DNA from: an uncultured Candidatus Saccharibacteria bacterium
GTDB lineage: Bacteria; Patescibacteriota; Doudnabacteria; UBA920
Assembly (NCBI GenBank): GCA_964490395.1
Contig: CAZBAS010000005.1
Location: forward strand, 17,167 to 81,166
Direction: 5' to 3'
Length of the DNA: 64,000 nt
Numbering within the stretch: position 1 is the stretch's first letter; each line of letters opens with the position of its first letter. A program made the translations under genes and the position numbers. Of the stretch, positions 9,974-53,972 are shown piece after piece. The notes under the pieces are model-generated. The model was given only the letters and a program-made list of their open reading frames with translations, was not told the origin of the DNA and ran no database searches.

Positions 9974-10741
9974 TTACACCGCATCTGGGAGCGAATCCCA
10001 TAATAAATTGAATAGTGAGCGCATAGAGGTGGCAACTTTTGAGTTTTGAATAACGCAGGCAGAAGGGTTTTTTATATCTGGATCAATAATTGCAAGTTTA
10101 TTCCCATAAACCCAGAATGATATAGCGAATTCATACCTATTTTTATTAAAGAGTTTAATTTTTCTATACTTTTCATTCATGCCAACGAGGTTTTGCATGA
10201 AGGGGGTGTGCGGCGCAATCCATCTGACTGGTATTTGTTCTTTTATTCTCTTTTGAACAAAGTGTTTGTCGTGGTCCGGCATAAGCTCGTATACATACTC
10301 ACCAGCTGAGATGCCCACTATCTCCCTGTTGGTTTTAGCGTTTTTTAGACTAAGTAAGCCTTCTTCGTATATTCGTTTAATGTTCTCTTTTCCTTCAAAA
10401 AAACGGACGGTCGACTGTTTAATTTCTTGGTGCGTCAAAGCTTGGAGTAAGGGAATGGTGTCGCGAAAATTATGCAAGGTGCGTTCAAGTTGGTACGCAA
10501 GTCGTTCGGGTGGTTCTGCCGCAAATGCTTTCCTTTTGCCACTTATGAAGTGGCTAATAAACCCTTTAGCCTCAAGCCTGCCAACTATAAGGTTTACAGT
10601 ACTGCGTTTTAAGCCAGTTTCATCTGTAATTTTTTGTATTGTAAGTCCTGGTTTCGCAACAAGGCATGTTAAATAAACCTTTATTTCAGGTGGTTTTAGC
10701 CCGAGACCTTCCATGTCACTGTATATGTCTTCATTAAACAC
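9974..10741 (-). CDS. TrmB-family transcriptional regulator
   Basis: N-terminal wHTH (IKVYLTCLVAKPGLTIQKITDETGLKRSTVNLIVGRLEAKGFI) plus a TrmB-like C-terminal domain; a paralog is at 45580-46323. Confidence 0.65.
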   Translation of the reverse strand: MFNEDIYSDMEGLGLKPPEIKVYLTCLVAKPGLTIQKITDETGLKRSTVNLIVGRLEAKGFISHFISGKRKAFAAEPPERLAYQLERTLHNFRDTIPLLQALTHQEIKQSTVRFFEGKENIKRIYEEGLLSLKNAKTNREIVGISAGEYVYELMPDHDKHFVQKRIKEQIPVRWIAPHTPFMQNLVGMNEKYRKIKLFNKNRYEFAISFWVYGNKLAIIDPDIKNPSACVIQNSKVATSMRSLFNLLWDSLPDAV

Positions 10742-35082: not shown

Positions 35083-35157
35083 TCGGGAGTAGCTCAGCGG
35101 TAGAGCGGCACGCTGTTAACGTGATGGTCCTGGGTTCGATCCCCAGCTCCCGAGCCA
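35083..35157 (+). tRNA. tRNA-Asn (anticodon GTT), CCA encoded
   Basis: Acceptor tcgggag/ctcccga; D-arm gctcagcggtagagc; anticodon loop ctGTTaa; T-arm ctggg-ttcgatc-cccag; discriminator g, then cca. Confidence 0.85.
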
Positions 35158-35470
35158 ACAAAAAAGTAGTACTTTAGTACTACTTTTTTGTTGGCTCGAT
35201 GAGGAGTGCAGGGATCGAAGGGAACGGTCCCGTACCGCAGGGAATTTCATGCGAATACTTGCAGCATGAAATAGTGGCGGGGTCGCGTTAGGTGAGAACT
35301 GAAACGACCTTAAGGAGTTGAAGTTCCACCGTGGGTGACCAATCCCCAGCTCCCGAGCCAACAAAAATACGTCACCTTTTGGTGGCGTTTTTTTCTTGGC
35401 TCATGGAGGAGCGCAGGGATTGAAGGGAACGGTCCCGTACCACGGGAATTTCATGCGAACACTTAGGGCT
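35150..35470 (+). repeat. Direct repeats of the tRNA-Asn 3' end, long hairpins and a duplicated ~65-nt segment
   Basis: atccccagctcccgagccaacaaaaa recurs at about 35339-35364. Each copy is followed by a long hairpin whose stem includes cgagccaac (gagccaacaaaaaagtagtac-ttt-gtactacttttttgttggctc). The segment ttggctcgatgaggagtgcagggatcgaagggaacggtcccgtacc... is repeated imperfectly at about 35396. Confidence 0.45.
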
Positions 35471-35655
35471 CCCACACTACTTGGGCCTTTAGGTTAAGTA
35501 GGGTGGGAAGAGGAGTAATCCTGAAAGGAATAAGAGTAAGTCTTTCTAAAGTTTACTTACATGACTGCAAGGCATTGCGACGAATTCCAGAATTATAGAA
35601 ACTCGATTCGGCTTTTCTTAACTTCCTTTTTGAACTTAGGAACTTTACGTTCATG

Positions 35656-35685
35656 TTGACAAAAGTACATATTAGTGCTTAAATA
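35656..35685 (+). promoter_or_regulatory. Sigma-70-like promoter upstream of the MAT gene
   Basis: TTGACA, a 17-nt spacer, then TTAAAT. Confidence 0.4.
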
Positions 35686-35709
35686 TATAAGCTGATTTTG
35701 CAGCAAAAC

Positions 35710-35742
35710 AAAAAGAGTTCGCCCGAACTCTTTTATTTTTTG
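35710..35742 (+). terminator. Stem-loop with a T-run inside the MAT leader (possible attenuator)
   Basis: aaaagagttcgcccgaactctttt followed by attttttg, between the predicted promoter and the SD/ATG at 35771. Confidence 0.45.
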
Positions 35743-35770
35743 TTCTTCGACAATCCACAGAGGAGGCGCG

Positions 35771-36997
35771 ATGAATTTCGGTTTTGTAAGTCAACATGGT
35801 CTTGGAAGTTTGCAGCAAGAAGTTATTGAGCGTAAAGGAATTGGGCATCCGGACACCCTAACTGACGCGTTAGCTGAACGTATGTCGGCTCACTACGCCC
35901 AGTACACATTGAAGCATTACGGAGTTATTTTGCACCATAATTTTGACAAGTTACACATACTTGGCGGTGCAACAGAGCTAGATTTTGGCGGTGGTAGGCT
36001 GATACGCCCCATCAGAGTTATTATAAACGGTAGAGCGTCTGCAAGCTTCGCCGGTGAACAACTGCCTGTCCAGTACATTCTGGGCGATGCAGCACGGTCA
36101 TTCTTTCAGGAGCGTTTTCCTGGATTGATTGACCCGGCTCGCGACCTTGAATTTCACTGGCTGGTCAGTACTTCCAGTAGCCCAGGCAGAACTAAGCGGA
36201 CTACTGGGGCGAGAGCATACATGTTTAATCCTCGGACAGTCGCCGAAGTGAAAGGTTACGACGGTCCCTTGGTCAACAACGATACTTCCATGGGGTGCGG
36301 CTACGCGCCGTATTCTATTCTGGAAGCAGCGGTGTTGGGTCTGGAGAGGGATTTGAACAGCAGTGTCCGGAAGGATGAATTCCCATGGCTTGGTACCGAC
36401 ATTAAAGTCATGGCCGTGCGGCAAGATGATCTCATTTCCATTACGGTGTGCTTGCCGCAAATAGCAAGTAAAGTGGCAAGTGAACGCGCGTACCAAGAAA
36501 ATTTGGCTACGTTGGACCGGCATATCAGGAGACAGCTTGCCCGGCTACTTCAAGGCGCGCCGTTCGAACTGGGGTATAACACCCGCGACAACAGGCGTAC
36601 AGGCGATTACTATCTTACTGTCACAGGCACTGCCCTTGAGTCTGGCGATGAAGGAGTAGTGGGTCGCGGTAATCGCATCAACGGTCTTATTACACCATTC
36701 CGACCGATGAACTTGGAAGGGGTGTGTGGTAAGAATCCACTCTACCATACGGGAAAGTTATATAACATAGTGGCGCAGCGAATCGCTGAGCGTATTCACC
36801 GCGAAACTGGCGCGTACTGCGAAGCGTACTTAGTGGGCCAAAGTGGACAAGCGTTGCTTGACCCGTGGTCTGCAACTATACGCAGCGCAGATACTAACTT
36901 GGATGCAGCAACTGCCCAAGCGTGGGCAGTTGAAGAAATACAACAAATTCCTGCTATAACCCAAGCGTTGGTGAAGCAGGAATTGACGTTATGGTAA
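35771..36997 (+). CDS. Archaeal-type S-adenosylmethionine synthetase (methionine adenosyltransferase, MAT)
   Basis: ERKGIGHPD, ILHHNFD, NNDTSMGCGYAP, DIKVM and YYLTVTGTALESGDEGVVGRGNRINGLITPFRPMNLEGVCGKNP...HTGKLYN are collinear with the archaeal MAT family; SD gaggagg upstream. Confidence 0.85.
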   Translation: MNFGFVSQHGLGSLQQEVIERKGIGHPDTLTDALAERMSAHYAQYTLKHYGVILHHNFDKLHILGGATELDFGGGRLIRPIRVIINGRASASFAGEQLPVQYILGDAARSFFQERFPGLIDPARDLEFHWLVSTSSSPGRTKRTTGARAYMFNPRTVAEVKGYDGPLVNNDTSMGCGYAPYSILEAAVLGLERDLNSSVRKDEFPWLGTDIKVMAVRQDDLISITVCLPQIASKVASERAYQENLATLDRHIRRQLARLLQGAPFELGYNTRDNRRTGDYYLTVTGTALESGDEGVVGRGNRINGLITPFRPMNLEGVCGKNPLYHTGKLYNIVAQRIAERIHRETGAYCEAYLVGQSGQALLDPWSATIRSADTNLDAATAQAWAVEEIQQIPAITQALVKQELTLW

Positions 36998-37010
36998 GAA
37001 AGGGAAAACC

Positions 37011-38057
37011 ATGCGCAAAGAACCACAAGACTACTCGCAGGCGCGAGATAGTTTCCTTTTGGAGAGGGGTTGGGCGTGTGCAGTCTGCCCCCGTTGCCAA
37101 AAACCATTTTTTACCAAACAGCGTTATCCATTGAATACGTGTGGCTCATACCGGTGCGAAGGTGGATATGTATTTTTGCAACGCCCCGCACCCAAGATAA
37201 AATTGACTGCCGCAGCGGCGGTAGATCATTTTTGTTTTACGGAGTTTGTTCGTGCGCCGACCATAGATTTGGTTCGGCGTGGCGAGCGGACTTTGTTTGC
37301 AAGCGCAGCTGGTCAAGTTCATGATGCTTGTATCTATGGCGGCGATATTACTATCGCTCCGCAGTGTTCGGTACTGCAGCCGGTTGTAAGGCTACAGTGT
37401 CTGCATGCAATAGATGAGCAAGATGGATTCTCCAGTAGTTTTCTCAACGCAGGGTTGGCTTGGTGGCAAGCGAGTCCTGAGCAGCACTTTCAAGCGTTCG
37501 ACAAGTTGCTCCAGTACTTGTCCCTACACGGAATATGTGTTGGGCACTTGGCGTTGAAACTCGACAGCGCAGAGAATGTGTGGGGCGACCTGCACGTACC
37601 CACGGACAGTCTAAAAATGAATTATGGTGGACTCGAAATTGGCATAGCCAACTTCTTTAACCATATTCAAACACCAAATGGCGAATCAAGCTTTAGCGAC
37701 ATTAGTCTTGGCGTGGAGAGGTTTGTATGGGCTGCGAATAAAAACGGCTCGTACTTTGACGACCTCGCTCCGGTCCAGTATGCTTCTGAGGTAAAAAGAA
37801 GCGTGCTAGACGCGGTACGCACGGCCACTTTGCTTATGGCTTCCGGGCTTACTCCTGGGAGCGTCCATCACGGGCAAAAGCTCCGCCTCATTCTGGGTCA
37901 GCTTCGCGACATTGGGTTCTGCCTTGACTGGTTTGGACTTGTCCGGTACTTCCACCAATTTTGGCGGCAGTTTATCGAACTGAGCCGGACAGAGGTGGAA
38001 TGTTATGAAGTATTAGAGCAAGAGCTAATGCACTTGCGCAATACCAGGCCTAACTAA
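37011..38057 (+). CDS. Hypothetical protein with an N-terminal Cys4 zinc ribbon
   Basis: CAVCPRC...CGSYRC; 348 aa; starts 14 nt after the MAT stop, so operonic. Confidence 0.55.
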   Translation: MRKEPQDYSQARDSFLLERGWACAVCPRCQKPFFTKQRYPLNTCGSYRCEGGYVFLQRPAPKIKLTAAAAVDHFCFTEFVRAPTIDLVRRGERTLFASAAGQVHDACIYGGDITIAPQCSVLQPVVRLQCLHAIDEQDGFSSSFLNAGLAWWQASPEQHFQAFDKLLQYLSLHGICVGHLALKLDSAENVWGDLHVPTDSLKMNYGGLEIGIANFFNHIQTPNGESSFSDISLGVERFVWAANKNGSYFDDLAPVQYASEVKRSVLDAVRTATLLMASGLTPGSVHHGQKLRLILGQLRDIGFCLDWFGLVRYFHQFWRQFIELSRTEVECYEVLEQELMHLRNTRPN

Positions 38058-38066
38058 TTCCATTCC

Positions 38067-38726
38067 ATGACTAACATATTTCTTGGCGGCGGGGGGTCTG
38101 CTATAGACTCCTTGCCGCTCGACCAACACTTTGCCAATCTTTTAGATAAGCAGAAACTGCTTGTCTATATTCCCAACGCCATGACCTCGCGCCCTTTTTC
38201 AGAGTGCATGGAATGGTTTACACATACGTTTGCTCCTTTGGGAGTAAATCGTATAGAAATGTGGGATCGGCTGCAGCCGCAGGCGGATGTTTCCGAGATT
38301 GCGGGAATATATGTGGGCGGCGGCGATACGGGCAGGCTTTTGAAACTGATACGAGAATCGCACTTTTCGGAATACATAGTAGAAGCGGTCAAGTCAGGCG
38401 TGCCAGTCTACGGCGGTAGCGCTGGGGCTATTGTACTTGGCCGTGACATTCGCACTGCGCCAGAAGCGGTTAATCTATCCTTGCAAGATGCAACAGGGTT
38501 AGGTTTGCTTGCTGATGAGTGCGTCGCGTGTCACTATGTCCCAGAACGAGAAACCAGTGTTTGTCACGCTGTATCGTCATTGGGCTACTCTATAATTGCT
38601 ATTCCAGAAAAGTCCGGTTTGTATTATAACGGTCAAGTATATTCGGTTTTCGGAACCGAGTCTGCTTGGCTTTTTTCTATGGATGAGAAAAAAGAACTGC
38701 TGTCAGGGGAGAGTTATACGCTGTAA
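38067..38726 (+). CDS. Peptidase S51 family protein (dipeptidase E / cyanophycinase-like)
   Basis: FLGGGGS, IYVGGGDTGRLL and YGGSAGAIV motifs of the S51 Ser hydrolase family. Confidence 0.7.
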   Translation: MTNIFLGGGGSAIDSLPLDQHFANLLDKQKLLVYIPNAMTSRPFSECMEWFTHTFAPLGVNRIEMWDRLQPQADVSEIAGIYVGGGDTGRLLKLIRESHFSEYIVEAVKSGVPVYGGSAGAIVLGRDIRTAPEAVNLSLQDATGLGLLADECVACHYVPERETSVCHAVSSLGYSIIAIPEKSGLYYNGQVYSVFGTESAWLFSMDEKKELLSGESYTL

Positions 38727-38762
38727 TAATTATTGTATTTTATAAATTTAATTGAATTACCT

Positions 38763-39191
38763 ATGGCAACCATAAACCCTTGGATAAACTTTAACGGGAA
38801 TGCAGAAGAAGCATTTACCTTTTACAAATCCGTCTTTGGTGGGGATTTTGGTAAAATAGTACGGTTTAAAGACCTGGCAAGCGCTGAGTTTCCTGTGCCC
38901 GAAGCAGAAGCAGAGAAGATAATGCTTATTACCTTACCCATTGGTCAGGGTAGTGCGCTCATGGCTAACGACGTACCGGAAGTACTGGGCAAAGTAAACG
39001 AGCGCGAAAACCGCAGCAAGATTTCCGTACGCGCGGAAAGTAAAGAAGAAGCCGACAAACTCTTTACCGGCCTTTCCGCCGGGGGAGAAGTAGAAGGCCC
39101 CATGGGCGACGGCCCCTGGGGGTCCTATGCCGGTATGTTCCGCGACAAATACGGCATTGAGTGGATAATTGAATTTGACCCTAGCAAATAA
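38763..39191 (+). CDS. VOC-family protein, PhnB / 3-demethylubiquinone-9 3-methyltransferase-like domain
   Basis: The PWINFNGNAEEAFTFYKSVFGG N-terminus is typical of the PhnB-like glyoxalase fold. Confidence 0.7.
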   Translation: MATINPWINFNGNAEEAFTFYKSVFGGDFGKIVRFKDLASAEFPVPEAEAEKIMLITLPIGQGSALMANDVPEVLGKVNERENRSKISVRAESKEEADKLFTGLSAGGEVEGPMGDGPWGSYAGMFRDKYGIEWIIEFDPSK

Positions 39192-39204
39192 AGGTTTGTA
39201 GAGC

Positions 39205-39240
39205 CTACAAAAAACACCTGTTTCAAACAGGTGTTTTTTG
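39205..39240. terminator. Bidirectional terminator hairpin
   Basis: aaaaaacacctgtttcaaacaggtgttttttg. Confidence 0.55.
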
Positions 39241-39253
39241 TTATTCTATTGCC

Positions 39254-39949
39254 ATGGAAGATTACAAGACGAGAGCGGTTAATCCGCAACAGTATGATTC
39301 TCCCGACCTGGATTGGAGAATAGACGGAGACGAGAACGCTTATTGGCGCATATTTTTTCGCGACCATTTAAGGCCATTTTTAAATGATCTTCCGGGCAAA
39401 CGAGTTTTGGATATTGGAAGTGGAGTTGGCCAGCTGTTTAATATGCTTAAGGAGTTAGGCGCGGCAGAAATTGTTGGGCTTGAACCATCAAAGAGGAATG
39501 TAGAAGCCTCTCGAAAAACCTACCCTGATATTGTTGTGCTTCAAAAGCCACTTGAACAGTTTAGCTCAGACGCGCAATTCGATGTTGCAATAAGTATTAT
39601 GGTATTTGAGCATATCTCCAATATCGATTTTGCTTTCAGTAAAGTATCCAATTTATTAAAAGGGAAGGGTAGATTCTATTTAATTGTTGGTGATATGGAA
39701 TGCTTTATCCAGTCAATACCAGGAGCGGAGGTAGACGCGCAGCCTTTGCCAGGAGGTGGCTATGCCACAAAAACAGTTAGACCAAATGGAGTAATGTTCG
39801 ATATCTTTCGCCCACTAGCAAGCTATATTAACAGCGCTGAATCGAATGGTTTAAAGCTTGTTGATCAAAAGGGTCTAGTTTCAACCTCCGAGCAGCATAC
39901 ATCCATGGGCGGTAAGCCAATTTGTCATTTGCTAGTTCTTGAGAAATAA
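39254..39949 (+). CDS. Class I SAM-dependent methyltransferase
   Basis: Motif I VLDIGSGVGQL; motif II/post-I acidic residue; 231 aa. Confidence 0.8.
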   Translation: MEDYKTRAVNPQQYDSPDLDWRIDGDENAYWRIFFRDHLRPFLNDLPGKRVLDIGSGVGQLFNMLKELGAAEIVGLEPSKRNVEASRKTYPDIVVLQKPLEQFSSDAQFDVAISIMVFEHISNIDFAFSKVSNLLKGKGRFYLIVGDMECFIQSIPGAEVDAQPLPGGGYATKTVRPNGVMFDIFRPLASYINSAESNGLKLVDQKGLVSTSEQHTSMGGKPICHLLVLEK

Positions 39950-39979
39950 ATTACGGCTTTATAGTACATAGGAAAACAT

Positions 39980-40531
39980 ATGAAAAAACTTATAATGTGG
40001 AACTTGGTTACGCTGGATGGGTATTTTGAGGGGGAGAAGCCGTGGGACTTGGAGTTCCATAACTTAGTGTGGGGCGAAGAGCTGGAAAAGTTTAGCATAG
40101 AGCAACTTAAAACAGTAAGTGCGCTCGTGTTTGGCGAGCGGACCTACAAAGGCATGGCCGACTACTGGACCAAAGCTACAAACGAAGGCGAAGTAACAGG
40201 CTTCATGAACAGCCTGCCAAAAATAGTTTGCTCTACCACATTGCAAACTGCAGACTGGAACAACACCACCATAGTGCGGGACGCAGTTGCCGAACTCACC
40301 AAGCTGAAACAAGAGGGAAGTGGTAACCTGTTTGTGTTTGGGAGTGGCGAACTTTCCGACTCCCTTATGAAGGCCAACCTCTTTGACGAGTACCGCCTCT
40401 GCGTTGTACCCGTCTTCCTCGGCAAAGGCAACCGCCTCTTTAAAGAAGGCCTGCCCTACCAAAAACTCAATCTGTTAGAAACAAAACCCCTCCACACCGG
40501 CGGCGTCATCCTCACTTACGCCTCAGCATAA
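39980..40531 (+). CDS. Dihydrofolate reductase family protein (RibD C-terminal-like)
   Basis: MKKLIMWNLVTLDGYFEG...LFVFGSGEL...PVFLGKGNRLF; a paralog is at 44155-44754. Confidence 0.75.
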   Translation: MKKLIMWNLVTLDGYFEGEKPWDLEFHNLVWGEELEKFSIEQLKTVSALVFGERTYKGMADYWTKATNEGEVTGFMNSLPKIVCSTTLQTADWNNTTIVRDAVAELTKLKQEGSGNLFVFGSGELSDSLMKANLFDEYRLCVVPVFLGKGNRLFKEGLPYQKLNLLETKPLHTGGVILTYASA

Positions 40532-40760
40532 ACCCTAACTTTCAAACAGCACTACATCCGTGGTGCTGTTTTGTTTGCCAAAATTTAGCCCCAGGCGTTT
40601 GGCTGGCTATACTTGGAAAGAATTTCGCGTAGTGCTACAGTTAGGGCAAGTCTGACAATGCTTAGTACTGTTTACTGATATATATTTTTACGAGTCAAAA
40701 ATTTCTCCACAAAGTTGATACGCTATATACCGTATACGTTATTTTTATTTTAAGGCTACT

Positions 40761-42866
40761 ATGGCCTACCAAAATTACGAGAAAAATGAGAGTAAGTTGT
40801 CTCACCATAAGCAGTTTAAGAAGGAGTTAAAACCTCCGCTCCTTACGCTTAATATGACAACCTATTCTTGGATAAATGACCGCATGCCTGAAATGTTATG
40901 GGCGGTTTTAGTCATTGGGAATATAGAAAGAGAAATTGCCTTAAAATTTTTCAGAACTATTGCCGAATTTGTACATAAGAATCCTGACTGTTCAGATGTA
41001 ACACTTACTGGTATTAGCAAATTTCATGAAGAAAAGAAAAAGCAATTTATTCAACTTGCCACAAGCTGGTCAGAGGAAGTAAAAAATGTCTTAAAGCCTT
41101 TGATGTGGCTTGAGCAGCTACCAGCAAAAGAAGTATGGAAGGAATTGCTAGGAGAACCTGCAAGGAAGGATGAAGATTTTAATAAACTAGCCAATGGCGT
41201 ATCTAAGACTTACTGGCACCAATCAGAAGCAGCTACTGACTGTAGATGGATTAAATTTTTGTGCCAGATACTAGGCGGAAAAATGTCTTTTACAAAAGGT
41301 ATGGAAGATAAAGTAAAAGGTGTTTTAGAATATCCAAACTACGGAGATTTGAAAACTATAAGACCCTTTATAAGGGCATCTGAAATTATGCCATCCGACC
41401 CTGATGCGGATAAACCTTTTCATAGTGATTGGTCATTTAATTTTTGGCAACAATGTTTTGATGAAACTGGTTGTCTCCCAGAAGAGAAGGTTAGTCAGAA
41501 AATCCGAAAGAAACAAGACGATTTGTTTCAAGAAATGAAAAAATCAAGAGAGTTTAGATTAAAGCAAATAGTTGATGTAAGACATAATTTAATTGAACAC
41601 TCGATTAAGGAGTCAAAAATTTCTTCTGTAGATGCAAGACATGAAGGAAGTTTTGGTTTGGCTTTGTATGGTCTCTCTCTGTATATTGAAATTATTTTTT
41701 ATACAGTATCACTCTCGATTACGGGCAGATTGGCTATGCGAGCTTTAGTAGAGTGTTATATAACATTTAAGTATTTATTACAAAAGGAAAAAAGTGAGCC
41801 AGCCATATGGGACACTTATCGCGAGTACGGAAACGGGCAACTAAAGCTGCTTTATCTAAAACTCAAAGAAATGAACCAGAAGATAGGAAGTATTGAAATT
41901 GATACACTAGACGAATTAGCGAATGAAGATAAATCGGTTGAGTTTGTTCCTATAAATCTAGGGAATTGGGACTCTGAAAATTTGAGAAAAATGGGCGCAG
42001 AAGCTGGGCTTAAAGATTTATACGATAAATACTATAGCTATACATCTGGTTTCATGCATGGAAGCTGGGGAGCTGTCAGAGAGTCTATTTACCAAAAGTG
42101 CGTAAATCCTCTTCATAGATTTCACAGAATACCTATTTTTGATATGCCTTTAATGTCGAGTGTGGTTGACGATGCAACAGAAATTATGAATGGCATCCTA
42201 GAATGTTTGTCAGTAGCATATCCTAAATTTGATGATAGATTATTAAATTCTGATAGCCTAGACAAAACAGAGGCTAAGTCAGAAGAACTAAGCCCTCAAC
42301 CAATTAAAGCAAGTAGCATCGCTAAGGGAATACATCATAGCATTAAAAATGCGGAAAGATATGTTCAGTCAGCTAAGGAGCTGAAAACTAAAGATAAACA
42401 GGCTGCCTATCTCTTATTTCTTTATGCGCTAGAAGAAATGGGAAAAGTTCCTTTAATTTGGAATGCTTTATTTCATACAGAAACAAAGAGTGAATGGCTA
42501 AAGTGGCAAAGAAGGTTCAAAGACCATGCAGAAAAATTTTGGTTTAGTAGAGATCTTGAAGATTTTGATGAGAGGAAATTATCTAACAAAGAAAATAAGG
42601 CGGAAACAAAAATGGCAGCTAAAAAACTAGATGTATCTTACGTTAGCTTTGATGGTGAATTTCAACCCCCTGAAGATGTAGGCGAAGAGGAATTGGCGAA
42701 GATAGAGTTAAATTGCGAACGCAGAATCGCGTTCTTAAAAAGAAATCATAAATCAATTGAAGAGGACGAAAAAAGAATTGTAGAAGGTTATAAAAAAATG
42801 AAAGGTCTGACACAGGAAGAATTGAAAGAAATGATCAAGAACATGCAAAAAGAAAAATCGGATTAG
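40761..42866 (+). CDS. Large AT-rich, Lys-rich orphan protein (701 aa), unknown function
   Basis: About 35% GC against about 48% in its flanks; no family recognised; internal R-x5-H (VRHNLIEH) and a C-terminal K/E-rich coiled-coil-like tail. Confidence 0.6.
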   Translation: MAYQNYEKNESKLSHHKQFKKELKPPLLTLNMTTYSWINDRMPEMLWAVLVIGNIEREIALKFFRTIAEFVHKNPDCSDVTLTGISKFHEEKKKQFIQLATSWSEEVKNVLKPLMWLEQLPAKEVWKELLGEPARKDEDFNKLANGVSKTYWHQSEAATDCRWIKFLCQILGGKMSFTKGMEDKVKGVLEYPNYGDLKTIRPFIRASEIMPSDPDADKPFHSDWSFNFWQQCFDETGCLPEEKVSQKIRKKQDDLFQEMKKSREFRLKQIVDVRHNLIEHSIKESKISSVDARHEGSFGLALYGLSLYIEIIFYTVSLSITGRLAMRALVECYITFKYLLQKEKSEPAIWDTYREYGNGQLKLLYLKLKEMNQKIGSIEIDTLDELANEDKSVEFVPINLGNWDSENLRKMGAEAGLKDLYDKYYSYTSGFMHGSWGAVRESIYQKCVNPLHRFHRIPIFDMPLMSSVVDDATEIMNGILECLSVAYPKFDDRLLNSDSLDKTEAKSEELSPQPIKASSIAKGIHHSIKNAERYVQSAKELKTKDKQAAYLLFLYALEEMGKVPLIWNALFHTETKSEWLKWQRRFKDHAEKFWFSRDLEDFDERKLSNKENKAETKMAAKKLDVSYVSFDGEFQPPEDVGEEELAKIELNCERRIAFLKRNHKSIEEDEKRIVEGYKKMKGLTQEELKEMIKNMQKEKSD

Positions 42867-43181
42867 ATTAAGTGGTAAATTTATTTAACTTCCTCACCTT
42901 GTACAATCGCTAAATTGTAAACTGACCGAAATTCCCCATGTTGTTAACATAATTCGAGCCACAAAAAAACATCAGGATGCGCGGTGTTTTTATGTTTTTG
43001 GTGTAGTAGTTCGTAGAGGATTGAAAATGTTATAATACCACTGTGAATACTATTAAAAATGCACAACGAGTATATTGCAAGGACCGGGTGGCGTGGCGGT
43101 TGTGGTCGGTGTATGACAGGAACCATGGCCGCAGGCAGGAATATTAAGGCTAATCATTATAGGCAATAACGCATACTATAT

Positions 43182-43634
43182 ATGTCTCCATACAAACACA
43201 CGCAAGTTAGTTGGTTTGTGATTACCATTACCCTAGTGGTGCTGGTGTTTTTTGGGTGGCTGCAAGTGACTAGCAGACTGGAGCCGGCATCAGCTGACTC
43301 GGGTGCAAACTTTTTGGTAACGGCGGTAATGGCGCTGGTCTTGTTTGTGCTGGCGTCTTTTTCTTCGCTTACCGTAAGTGTGGACGAGCAGAGTGTAAAA
43401 ATTCGTTTTGGCTGGGGCATTTTTCGGAAAACTTTCTTACTTGCCCAAGTTGCTACAGTTAAGCAAGTACAAAACCCCTGGTACTACAGCTGGGGCATAC
43501 ACTATTGGCTATGGCCTAAAATGTGGGTTTTTAACATTGCCGGCTTAGGCGCAGTGGAACTTACTATGAAAAACGGGAAAATCTTTCGCATAGGCACAAA
43601 CGAACCAGAAAAACTTGAGAGTGCCATTAAGTAG
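43182..43634 (+). CDS. Membrane protein with a bacterial PH-like domain
   Basis: Two N-terminal TM helices followed by a YcxB/bPH-like C-terminal region. Confidence 0.5.
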   Translation: MSPYKHTQVSWFVITITLVVLVFFGWLQVTSRLEPASADSGANFLVTAVMALVLFVLASFSSLTVSVDEQSVKIRFGWGIFRKTFLLAQVATVKQVQNPWYYSWGIHYWLWPKMWVFNIAGLGAVELTMKNGKIFRIGTNEPEKLESAIK

Positions 43635-43678
43635 GATGTACATTCCTAGCTAGTAAACTGTAACAACGAGTATATTTT

Positions 43679-44134
43679 ATGGCAGAAATAAAGACCAAGG
43701 CGACTAAGGAGAGTGCGACTAATTTTTTGAACACTATTACGCCGGACGAGAAAAAGAAGGATGCTTTGGCGCTGCTTAAATTGTTCAAAGACGTTACCGG
43801 AGAGAAGCCGGTTATGTGGGGCCCGAGCATTGTAGGGTTTGGGAAGTACCATTACAAGTCTGATAAGAGTAGCCAGGAAGGCGATTGGTTCCATGTGGGC
43901 TTTTCTCCAAGAAAGCAAAACTTAACGCTCTATATATTGGCGTGGAAAGCAGAGGAGCCAAAGGAGTTGGCTAAGCTTGGGAAGTTTAAACGAGGCGGCG
44001 GGTGTTTGTATATAAACAAGCTCGTGGACATAGACCAGAAAGTTTTAGCCAAGCTTATAAAAGACATATATATGTACCGGAAGAAAATCCACAAAAAAGA
44101 AGAACGATTGCGCGATGTTAAAGATGCTAAATAG
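43679..44134 (+). CDS. DUF1801 (YdhG-like) family protein
   Basis: FL..I..DEKKKDAL.LL.LF..VTGE.PVMWGPSIVGFGKYHYK...G.W...GFSPRK. Confidence 0.65.
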   Translation: MAEIKTKATKESATNFLNTITPDEKKKDALALLKLFKDVTGEKPVMWGPSIVGFGKYHYKSDKSSQEGDWFHVGFSPRKQNLTLYILAWKAEEPKELAKLGKFKRGGGCLYINKLVDIDQKVLAKLIKDIYMYRKKIHKKEERLRDVKDAK

Positions 44135-44154: not shown

Positions 44155-44754
44155 ATGAGAAAAATAATTGTAATAGAGTTCATAAGTTTAGATGGCGTTA
44201 TGCAGGCACCGGGTGCTCGTGAAGAAGACACTTCCGGAGGTTTTACATTTGGCGGCTGGACGGTTCCTCTTGGAGACGGGTTTTTGGAAGAGGTTATGCA
44301 AGAGCAAATGCAAGGGCCTTACGAATTGCTTTTAGGTCGTAAAACGTACGATATTTTTGCTGGGTACTGGCCGGAGCACGAGTCTGGTTGGCCGGGGGTG
44401 AACAAGTCTAAAAAATATGTTGTTTCTAGTAGCTTTACAAACCCAACGTGGGAGAATACCGTTGTGATACAGAGTAATGTTGTAGAAGAATTGAAGAGAC
44501 TAAAAAGTCAGGACGGGCCAAACCTGCATGTGTGGGGGAGCGGCAACCTTGTTCAAACATTGCTGAAAAATGATTTGGTTGATGAATTGTGGTTGAAGAC
44601 TTATCCTCTTACGCTCGGAGCAGGTAAGCGTTTATTTGCAGAAGGCACTATTCCGGCAGCTTTCAAGCTAATGGAGTGCAAAACTTCGCCAAAAGGGGTT
44701 GTTGTTGCAAACTACGAACGCGCAGGAGAGGTGCAGACTGGTTCTTACGTCTAA
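44155..44754 (+). CDS. Dihydrofolate reductase family protein (RibD C-terminal-like), second copy
   Basis: MRKIIVIEFISLDGVMQAPG...LHVWGSGNLVQTLL. Confidence 0.75.
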   Translation: MRKIIVIEFISLDGVMQAPGAREEDTSGGFTFGGWTVPLGDGFLEEVMQEQMQGPYELLLGRKTYDIFAGYWPEHESGWPGVNKSKKYVVSSSFTNPTWENTVVIQSNVVEELKRLKSQDGPNLHVWGSGNLVQTLLKNDLVDELWLKTYPLTLGAGKRLFAEGTIPAAFKLMECKTSPKGVVVANYERAGEVQTGSYV

Positions 44755-44994: not shown

Positions 44995-45414
44995 ATGCAA
45001 CTAAATTACACGGCTATACTTATAGCCACAATAGCTCAGTTTATTTTTGGGGCCATTTGGTACACACCCATTTTTGGTAAGCTCTGGGGGAAAATTCACG
45101 AGTTCGACAAAGTCCCGGCCGACAAGCAAAAGGAAATGATGAAAAACATGTGGAAGCCCTTGCTGGTCCAGCTCATTGTTACGTTCATAACTAGCTTCGT
45201 GTTTGCCTTGCTCTTGAACGGTTTCCCAGCAGAGTGGAATGTGTATGGCCTGGCTTTCTTCTTCTGGCTTGGGTTTATTTTCCCAACCCAGGTGGCCGCA
45301 GTTTTATTTGGCGGTACCAAACCAGAGTGGGTCATAACCAAAATAGCTATTATGGCAGGCGCGGCTCTCGGCTGCATGGAAATAGCTGCTGTTGTGTTTA
45401 AGTGGATGATGTAA
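44995..45414 (+). CDS. DUF1761-family membrane protein
   Basis: Four TM segments; N-terminus AILIATIAQFIFGAIWYTPIFGKLW. Confidence 0.55.
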   Translation: MQLNYTAILIATIAQFIFGAIWYTPIFGKLWGKIHEFDKVPADKQKEMMKNMWKPLLVQLIVTFITSFVFALLLNGFPAEWNVYGLAFFFWLGFIFPTQVAAVLFGGTKPEWVITKIAIMAGAALGCMEIAAVVFKWMM

Positions 45415-50024: not shown

Positions 50025-50514
50025 TGAGTTAATGTATGGATGTATATATTCAAACAAATATACAGCAGTGCAAGAGTCTGTTCAGAGAGGCTGGTTTTCG
50101 TATAATTGAAAGGTCGGGTTATGCTGATGCTGAACTTAAAACTTCTTTTGGCAGATTCCACATACATTTTGCGGCGTTGCCAACGCAGGTGTATGCCGAT
50201 TTGCATTATGATTTGCGCGTGCATTTTCTATTCTTAGGGGTCTTTTACCAGCGCTTTACAGAAGGTTTTTTAAAACAAGTTTTATTACCTGTATTGGTGA
50301 AACATAAAATTGGTTATTCGTGGTCCAAATCAAGTTGGCTTCGAAGAAGAAATAGAGCAATCCTGTGGGGTATGAGAATTTAGTTGAAATTTTGTGCTAA
50401 AGAGTGCCTTTGCCACAACCGCTCGTATTATAAAAACCATGTGTTTGCATGGTTTTTCTTTTGGGTTTATTCTAGATTTATAAATGGCTATCAAATTTTT
50501 TAGATGCTTAATTT

Positions 50515-53222: not shown

Positions 53223-53972
53223 ATGAAGTTATTGCAGTGGAATATTTGGTATAAGGAGGACGCCGGGCATATATTAGAACTGTTGAAATTGATTCAGCCC
53301 GATATAATTTGTTTACAAGAGTCAACCATTGGCTATCCTGAAAATAACGGCATCGATGTTTCTAGTTTTTTGGCAAAATCTCTAGATTACAATTGTTTCT
53401 TCTGCCCAGCTCAAGAGTGGCAGCTCGGGGGTGTTTTGAAAACCCAAGGGAATGTTATTTTGTCTAAATATCCGATTGTGGACACAAGTTATCTATATAT
53501 ACAGCAACCGCAAGACCCAAGTCTAAATTCTAGTGATTATACAAAAGAGGGTAGGGTGTATGCAGAAGTGTGTTTGGATGTTAATGGCCAGGTTTTAACA
53601 GTGGGTACAGCGCACGCTTCTTATACAGATGCCTTTGTTGTCACAGATGCCAAAAGAGCAGAATTGGATAGGTTGATTAATGTGTTTCGTCATAAAAGAA
53701 ACAGATATATTTTTGCTGGTGATTTAAATGTTAATTCAGACGCAGATGCTATTGTGGCTATACAACAGCATCTGCAAAATCTTGGTCCTGGCTTTGAATA
53801 TCCAACATGGACTACAAAACCTTTTTCTTATCGTGGATTTGAAGAAAATAGGTTACATTGGAGGTTAGATTATGTTTTTGGCACTGAAGATATTGAAGTA
53901 AAAAACACAAGTGTAATAGATACCGAATATTCTGATCATCTGCCGTTACTTTTAGATTTTAATGTTAGGTGA
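53223..53972 (+). CDS. Endonuclease/exonuclease/phosphatase (EEP) family protein
   Basis: LLQWNIW...CLQE N-terminus; C-terminal SDHLPLLLDF. Confidence 0.8.
   Translation: MKLLQWNIWYKEDAGHILELLKLIQPDIICLQESTIGYPENNGIDVSSFLAKSLDYNCFFCPAQEWQLGGVLKTQGNVILSKYPIVDTSYLYIQQPQDPSLNSSDYTKEGRVYAEVCLDVNGQVLTVGTAHASYTDAFVVTDAKRAELDRLINVFRHKRNRYIFAGDLNVNSDADAIVAIQQHLQNLGPGFEYPTWTTKPFSYRGFEENRLHWRLDYVFGTEDIEVKNTSVIDTEYSDHLPLLLDFNVR

Follow-up and report, generated by a model that had tools for sequence, protein, structure and literature searches.

The lactococcal AbiV system, which was reportedly described by Haaber and colleagues in 2008-2010, is said to consist of the HEPN RNase AbiV1 and the RNA antitoxin abiV2. 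AbiV forms dimers and degrades rRNA as a HEPN RNase that needs no metal; R91 and H97 of its motif 91-RNHKSKH-97 are needed for RNase activity, E67 and K70 are residues of the dimer interface, and the protein is restrained by the RNA antitoxin, the N-terminal 23 residues being required (Zhu et al., bioRxiv 10.1101/2024.05.05.592566). In the AbiV family this R and H are not strictly conserved, and the active-site loop was unusually flexible in the crystals (bioRxiv 10.1101/2024.05.05.592566). Aditi is a validated anti-phage system of two proteins without recognisable domains, for which protection was shown with the canonical two-gene system only (Millman et al. 2022, bioRxiv 10.1101/2022.05.11.491447); its mechanism is still listed as unknown in later surveys. 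Here we analysed a stretch of 64,000 nucleotides (hereafter, the window; contig CAZBAS010000005.1, positions 17,167 to 81,166) from an uncultured Candidatus Saccharibacteria bacterium, in which an uninterrupted open reading frame (ORF) of 701 amino acids (aa) is listed at 40761..42866 on the forward strand. As judged from the homology of its parts, this gene appears to be a rare, horizontally acquired fusion of the Aditi large protein (DitA-like) with an AbiV-type HEPN domain.

Domain identity of the fusion protein

A first-pass annotation of the window, made from its letters alone, had taken the ORF for an orphan matching no family; this status is lost with the strong matches to DitA, DUF5677 and HEPN_AbiV. 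The N-terminal 495 residues are homologous to DitA across its profile (PADLOC PDLC03826, E = 2.3e-80, 268.8 bits, with aa 9-489 matching profile positions 2-474 of 486). About 20 residues are invariant from the clade of the candidate phyla radiation (CPR) to canonical Firmicutes DitA (e.g. D160, R205/E208, R327/E331, E394, R409 and H433), and C238 is nearly invariant across the DitA superfamily. The likeness to the Pfam DUF5677 proteins (PF18928) consists in the match at aa 320-442, a region which makes up only some 25% of the core conserved among DitA-like proteins and contains the superfamily-invariant R327, E331, E394, R409, Y421, S429 and H433; the database relatives are annotated as 'DUF5677 domain-containing protein'. 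The DitA module was modelled with a predicted local distance difference test score (pLDDT) of >90 at aa 40-200, and the C447-H455 region at <50, the loop at 444-462 being of very low confidence. No relative of the module was found in PDB by sequence or with Foldseek, and no similarity to known enzymes was detectable. From its conservation, C238 together with C447, H452 and H455 is a possible metal-binding site, structural or catalytic.

On the C. difficile and S. salivarius plasmids with canonical Aditi (L069 and L070), DitA has 490 and 488 aa (709 and 732 bits with PADLOC), and the gene for DitB (354 and 356 aa; DitB profile scores of 399 and 396 bits) overlaps ditA. The protein studied here carries the fused HEPN domain at the place where canonical ditA is succeeded by the gene for DitB, and whereas canonical Aditi is found in Bacillota, the DitA-like clade of the fusion belongs to uncultivated lineages (CPR and others). 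We considered whether the C-terminal region is a fused DitB and rejected this, as PADLOC gave no DitB match and the hhalign comparison of DitB with AbiV gave a probability of 0.2%.

The C-terminal domain was assigned to the AbiV family with Pfam HEPN_AbiV (PF18728; aa 520-646, E = 9e-11, 42.6 bits against a cut-off of 27.1) and NCBIfam AbiV_defense (TIGR04498; aa 523-647, 41.3 bits against a cut-off of 27), and the profile of its family matched the solved AbiV structures (PDB 9bj7 and 9bj5) from sequence alone (E about 2-3e-7). The model obtained with the 35-sequence alignment has the HEPN fold (pLDDT 93.9; predicted template modelling score 0.89), with the four-helix up-down bundle and the R-x4-6-H motif by which the HEPN superfamily is recognised. 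As had been noted in the first-pass annotation, the protein is rich in Lys (11.3%); Glu accounts for 10.3%, and K and E together for 39% of the final 61 residues. The K/E-rich C-terminus described there was thus confirmed in its composition, but not as an added coiled coil: because the matches of standalone AbiV-like relatives run through this tail, it is a native helical part of the ~190-aa AbiV-like subfamily.

The AbiV interface pair E67/K70 maps to E559/K562 with three alignment methods, and among 35 members of the AbiV-like family E559 is invariant and K562 is conserved in at least 90%. H589 and K592, which are aligned with AbiV H93 and K96, are invariant in the same 35 sequences. The R584-x4-H589 motif, kept in all three fusion orthologues, is offset from the R91...H97 motif of AbiV. 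Catalysis by the HEPN domain is plausible but not assured. The domain thus resembles AbiV in family membership, fold, interface E/K pair and invariant His-x-x-Lys, and differs from it in further respects: lactococcal AbiV stands alone (~200 aa), whereas the fusion carries a 495-aa N-terminal module; the type III toxin-antitoxin (TA) layout with an upstream RNA (abiV2) was not found at the three fusion loci; and the nearest relatives of the domain form a separate ~190-aa subfamily, one member of which (P0121) has an overlapping 271-aa partner gene. From Csm6/Csx1 (CARF-HEPN), AbiA (reverse transcriptase-HEPN) and Cas13 the protein differs in its N-terminus, which has a DitA/DUF5677 fold and is not a CARF, reverse transcriptase or CRISPR RNA-binding part.

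The first-pass annotation had pointed to a different site, the R-x5-H of VRHNLIEH, as a motif of the type known from HEPN RNases. These letters are present, but we rejected them as a HEPN motif, since they lie outside the HEPN domain, are not conserved (canonical DitA carries IFVYLSDL or ALKYYRDM at this position, and distant family members are also without the motif) and occur at chance level, three R-x4-6-H motifs having been observed in the 701 aa against 2.05 +/- 1.35 in shuffled sequences, with 33% of the shuffles reaching three.

Occurrence, composition and relatives

The fusion was searched for in 5.8 billion protein clusters and in 1.84 billion cluster representatives. Three diverged fusion orthologues in total, sporadically distributed, were found across both searches. 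A database search with the fusion protein gave 613 homologues; among the best 120 of these, both domains were carried by the fusion protein, P0002 (77% identity) and P0003 (62%) only, and the remainder were DitA-like proteins of ~500 aa that stop where the fusion linker starts. One orthologous fusion (L059) starts 5 nucleotides (nt) past secA, ahead of tRNA-binding and NUDIX genes, and the other is located between a small GIY-YIG gene and a gene of unknown function. The fusion orthologues are in three unrelated genomic contexts, without conserved synteny.

The fusion gene has a GC content of 0.356 (0.306 at third codon positions, GC3), the lowest GC of the 70 non-overlapping ORFs of the window (mean, 0.462 +/- 0.034; z = -3.1; GC3 z = -2.4). 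Of the values given in the first-pass annotation, ~35% for the ORF agrees with this, and ~48% for its surroundings is to be replaced by ~45%. The compositional island drawn there at 40535-43180 fits the measured GC and GC3 deviation and the AT-rich flanks well. All three fusion genes have a GC content of ~0.357, which in two of the hosts (0.45-0.47) is 10 points below the genome. The two halves of the gene are equal (0.358 vs 0.351), and this equality, together with the common value of the three fusions, is consistent with a transfer in the already fused state. Horizontal acquisition of the gene is supported by both composition and context.

Both domains are under purifying selection and the linker is unconstrained: the proportion of nonsynonymous differences (pN) is 0.10-0.25 in the two domains, that of synonymous differences being saturated at 0.70-0.82, and the pN of the 20-residue linker is far higher (Table 1). 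In the comparison with sibling strains, the fusion gene differs at 1 of 2103 nt, and the upstream RibD_C gene at 8.4% (46 mismatches, 39978-40523). The near-identical tract between the strains takes in the DitA-AbiV, 150-aa and DUF1801 genes, begins sharply at the edge of the compositional island, and suggests a recent recombinational exchange or sweep; another cluster of mismatches is at 45036-45240, in the DUF1761 gene. This mosaic divergence of siblings indicates recombination tracts within the population. As an empty-site test, relatives of the downstream 150-aa gene (43182-43634) were collected from metagenomes (seven loci) and were without common synteny.

The DitA module is 45-67% identical to about 600 standalone proteins of ~500 aa. 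Their loci in reference genomes (n = 49) come from many Patescibacteria, Omnitrophota, Dehalococcoidia, several archaea, Azospirillum and Neomoorella, and no neighbour is conserved among the 49. No DitB or AbiV-like partner was found in 75 neighbours of these loci with phmmer, all-vs-all BLAST, PADLOC and Pfam, nor in 33 extensions and close neighbours of the standalone genes that were compared by local hhalign. The DitA-like genes without DitB or another conserved partner make up a large clade in uncultivated lineages, which extends over Patescibacteria, Omnitrophota, Chloroflexota, Proteobacteria and archaea. As DitB is absent from most DitA-like genes of uncultivated lineages, the DitA core must be able to function by itself. 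Prediction tools that require both ditA and ditB would leave this clade uncalled as Aditi. Defence genes are among the neighbours (type II and IIG restriction-modification, PDC-S05/RhuM, AriA, AbiLi and MADS components). The standalone genes are AT-shifted relative to their flanks in 32 of 42 loci, some by 25-30 points (e.g. 0.32 vs 0.61 at L026 and 0.41 vs 0.66 at L045), and large serine recombinase-like ORFs were found within 6 kb of the gene in eight loci (L004, L010, L020, L025, L028, L032, L037 and L043), which agrees with the report that DUF5677 is among the domains enriched beside serine recombinases (PMC12632615).

Other C-terminal additions to DitA-like proteins were also seen, namely a YbeY endoribonuclease, a uracil-DNA glycosylase (UDG)-like domain and unannotated extensions of 140-490 aa (L012 5998-7941; P0106; L032 6013-8058; L042 5911-8874; P0007). 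The addition of YbeY could reflect read-through into a neighbouring housekeeping gene.

For the AbiV-like part, the C-terminal 196 residues were used in an exhaustive profile search against the 1.84 billion cluster representatives, which gave 212 relatives. Nearly all are standalone proteins of ~190 aa, and the fusion with DitA was found in the fusion protein's own cluster only. The closest standalone relative is P0121 (189 aa, 47% identical). Its gene overlaps by 14 nt a downstream gene for 271 aa without a Pfam match, and the pair (L055 8001-9372; also L056-L058) sits between rpoD and an ABC transporter; the two genes possibly form an AbiV-like system in which the partner is a protein. The 271-aa protein was examined as a possible DitA fragment and proved unrelated. 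A family of ~510-aa proteins (P0196, P0197, P0218, P0236, P0253, P0265, P0266 and P0275) combines an N-terminal AbiV HEPN domain with a conserved C-terminal region of ~350 aa; neither a DitA nor a DitB signal was obtained, so that these are not AbiV-DitB or AbiV-DitA fusions and form a separate family, a further uncharacterised AbiV fusion architecture.

Proposed function and rival explanations

The shuffling of defence modules is common, and what is new here is the domain architecture, in which a DitB-less DitA-like protein and an AbiV HEPN domain, both of known defence families, are joined. We favour, with some reserve, the interpretation that the fusion is a self-contained, horizontally acquired anti-phage protein of the abortive-infection type, made of two defence modules and a flexible linker. 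The protein would form a dimer at E559/K562, the interface of its AbiV-type HEPN domain. As long as the cell is uninfected, the RNase site would be kept inactive by the DitA-like module, which the linker ties to the AbiV domain at its N-terminal helix, a segment essential for activity in lactococcal AbiV, and which is in the place taken by the RNA antitoxin in AbiV and by DitB in Aditi. On infection it would sense a phage cue and free a composite HEPN site (H589 with R584/R585/K587/K592), which, by analogy with AbiV, would cleave rRNA or other RNA and halt translation. Both parts are modular elsewhere (YbeY and UDG-like additions on DitA; the ~510-aa AbiV fusions), which is consistent with a sensor and an effector. 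No conserved RNA antitoxin or structured flank was detected, as the three fusion loci share no flanking sequence and there was no Rfam match; a lineage-specific RNA antitoxin is possible. A HEPN module without the RNA-antitoxin layout of Lactococcus points to a protein-based control of the flexible active-site loop. The fusion suggests the testable hypothesis that DitA controls a nucleic-acid-degrading effector, for which a one-gene construct is simpler than the Aditi pair. The earlier idea of a foreign, solitary gene for defence or abortive infection through a HEPN RNase is supported by homology, and the horizontal origin by composition and context; the motif and the orphan status on which the idea had leaned are given up.

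Several observations weigh against this interpretation, in which a defence function is argued from homology. The score on the DitA profile is 268.8 bits, compared with 709-732 for canonical DitA, so that the module represents a distant branch, and DitB is missing from the fusion protein, its neighbours and the 49 related standalone loci; because of this low score and the absence of DitB, the validated function of Aditi may not carry over. AbiV R91 is replaced by K587 and H97 by F593 with all three alignment methods, that is, the mutated AbiV residues are without R/H counterparts. The invariant polar, His and Cys residues of the DitA core look more like an active site than like parts of a passive sensor. 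The co-occurrence with known defence genes that had been proposed as a check was not observed: there is no defence island around the fusion gene, where PADLOC gave generic methyltransferase/helix-turn-helix and weak sub-threshold matches. No phage or prophage copies were found in INPHARED phages, IMG/VR contigs or PHROGs. Finally, a DUF5677 ORF was included in a test in E. faecalis and did not belong to the protective ones (PMC12632615).

These invariant residues, of which about 20 are common to the CPR clade and canonical Firmicutes DitA, are the starting point of a different assignment of roles, in which the DitA-like module is the enzyme or effector (e.g. a metal-dependent hydrolase at D160, R205/E208, R327/E331, H433 and C238/C447/H452/H455) and the AbiV-like domain, having lost catalysis, is an adaptor for RNA binding, dimerisation or targeting. 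About 600 DitA-like proteins that stand alone without a conserved partner would fit such an enzyme, as would the substitutions at R91 and H97 and the incomplete conservation of R and H in the AbiV family (Zhu et al., bioRxiv 10.1101/2024.05.05.592566). We regard this assignment as unlikely, given that H589/K592 are invariant in the 35 AbiV-like sequences and R584-x4-H589 is kept in the three fusions, that the AbiV domain is selected as strongly as DitA, and that the DitA core lacks detectable similarity to known enzymes. The foreign composition, the near-identical tract common to strains with diverged flanks and the fact that in each of the three hosts the gene is inserted alone among housekeeping or accessory genes could also be explained by a selfish element for addiction or toxin immunity, in which a HEPN toxin is joined to its own neutralising domain and which persists through horizontal transfer with no dedicated anti-phage role; HEPN domains are common TA toxins, and AbiV belongs to a TA system of type III. 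Such an element is improbable in our view, since both constituent families were defined through anti-phage phenotypes, a covalent toxin-antitoxin fusion cannot use the differential stability on which addiction is usually based, and neither an integrase nor a transposase adjoins the gene in the window.

A housekeeping enzyme of the lineage, concerned with RNA processing or ribosome quality control and not with defence, would agree with the rRNA targets of AbiV-type RNases, with the fusion of one DitA homologue to the housekeeping RNase YbeY and with the position of the L059 fusion gene between secA and a tRNA-binding protein gene; three sporadic fusion proteins across both large cluster searches, in three unrelated contexts without conserved synteny, and a GC content 10 points under the host in two genomes make this very improbable. 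It is scarcely credible that the ORF is a chimera caused by mis-assembly or by a lost stop codon between adjacent genes. Most DitA homologues do stop at about residue 500, and the AbiV-like relatives are standalone proteins of ~190 aa, but the same 701-aa ORF is found in three independent assemblies, the orthologues at 77% and 62% identity are single ORFs in which the linker diverges in frame, and both halves have the same GC content.

Beyond the preferred reading of the fusion as an abortive-infection protein, we put forward, tentatively and as a rather doubtful generalisation, that DitA-like proteins are more than one half of the Aditi pair, namely a widespread, autonomous and horizontally mobile family, most common in CPR/Patescibacteria and present in archaea too, with a new all-helical fold and an invariant set of Cys, His, Asp, Arg and Glu residues that may be a metal site, which may serve as a general infection sensor or switch with interchangeable nucleic-acid-targeting outputs. 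If this is true, the outputs would be DitB in Bacillota, YbeY or UDG-like modules in other proteins and the AbiV HEPN RNase in the present fusion, which would be a 'Rosetta stone' for Aditi as a system whose signal leads to abortive infection by RNA degradation.

Features of the locus and its surroundings

The coordinates of the features are given in Table 1. The terminator-like hairpin after the RibD_C gene, which was missed by the consensus scan, implies that the fusion gene is its own transcription unit, and we consider such a separate unit probable. A scan of the upstream region for sigma-70 promoters gave no convincing match, and fewer matches than in shuffled sequences.

Table 1. Features of the DitA-AbiV fusion gene and its flanks (positions in the window; residue numbers of the fusion protein).
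Feature	Position	Strand	Evidence and remarks
CDS (coding sequence) of the DitA-AbiV fusion protein	40761..42866	+	Stop codon included; identical 701-aa protein on 3 independent metagenome contigs; orthologues at 77% and 62% identity stay one ORF
DitA-like module, aa 1-495, all-helical	40761..42245	+	PADLOC DitA match
VRHNLIEH, aa 273-280	41577..41600	+	In DitA module, outside HEPN domain; rejected as HEPN motif
Pfam DUF5677 region, aa 320-442, within DitA module	41718..42086	+	PF18928, E = 3e-16, 60.4 bits vs cut-off 27.1
C447-x-N-P-x-H452-x-x-H455 segment of DitA module	42099..42125	+	Invariant in 40 sequences, canonical DitA included
Interdomain linker, aa 496-515, flexible, fast-evolving	42246..42305	+	pN 0.42-0.58; pLDDT <50 at aa 500-514; orthologues align poorly
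AbiV-family HEPN domain, aa 516-701, K/E-rich helical tail included	42306..42863	+	Pfam and NCBIfam matches
EEMGK, aa 558-562	42432..42446	+	E559/K562 correspond to the E67/K70 dimer-interface pair of lactococcal AbiV
HEPN-type motif R584-R585-F-K587-D-H589-A-E-K592 (R-x4-H)	42510..42536	+	Alignments
Near-identical tract between sibling strains	40524..44024	.	1 mismatch in 3.5 kb; sharp left breakpoint at RibD_C 3' end; map vs L001 and L002
AT-rich upstream intergenic region	40532..40760	+	GC 0.38; presumed promoter site; Shine-Dalgarno-like AAGG at 40752-40755; not conserved at the 2 orthologous fusion loci
Terminator-like hairpin	40544..40571	+	13 nt past upstream RibD_C stop; followed by U-rich tract; 12-bp stem, -17.2 kcal/mol, z = -3.9 vs shuffles
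AT-rich downstream intergenic region	42867..43181	+	GC 0.39; right-hand edge of compositional island; no Rfam family; not conserved at orthologous loci

The two paralogs of the dihydrofolate reductase family that had been said to flank the ORF are indeed there, as RibD_C genes at 39980-40531 and 44155-44754 that are 33% identical. The neighbours in the window are RibD_C, DUF1801, DUF1761, TrmB, glyoxalase and methyltransferase genes, of accessory metabolic or regulatory kinds; the window contains no CRISPR array and no cyclic-oligonucleotide context. Upstream, a tRNA-Asn(GTT) gene at 35083-35157 is followed by a 4.6-kb strain-variable cassette (35354-39975), which in the window (forward strand) encodes an archaeal-type S-adenosylmethionine synthetase, a 348-aa unknown protein, peptidase S51, a glyoxalase and a methyltransferase, and on the contig L001 (reverse strand) a glyoxalase, a cupin, TrmB and a methyltransferase. 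The arrangement resembles a variable hotspot linked to a tRNA gene, located directly upstream of the DitA-AbiV locus. The synthetase (35771-36997; PF01941, E = 5e-100) is of archaeal type, the rest of the window being bacterial.

Further AT-rich ORFs of the window (GC 0.37-0.40; 53223-53972, 50036-50383 and 9974-10741), for which PADLOC gave no significant match, may be additional foreign genes. The genes of the host include those for GGDEF-EAL proteins, histidine kinases and RsgA, and the closest named relatives of its ABC-F protein are from Patescibacteria, a weak placement at 42-47% identity. At 504-1910 on the reverse strand there is a beta-CASP/metallo-beta-lactamase RNase-like protein, whose best NCBIfam match was 'type VII CRISPR-associated Cas14' (425 bits, short of the 800-bit cut-off) and which is also similar to aCPSF1.

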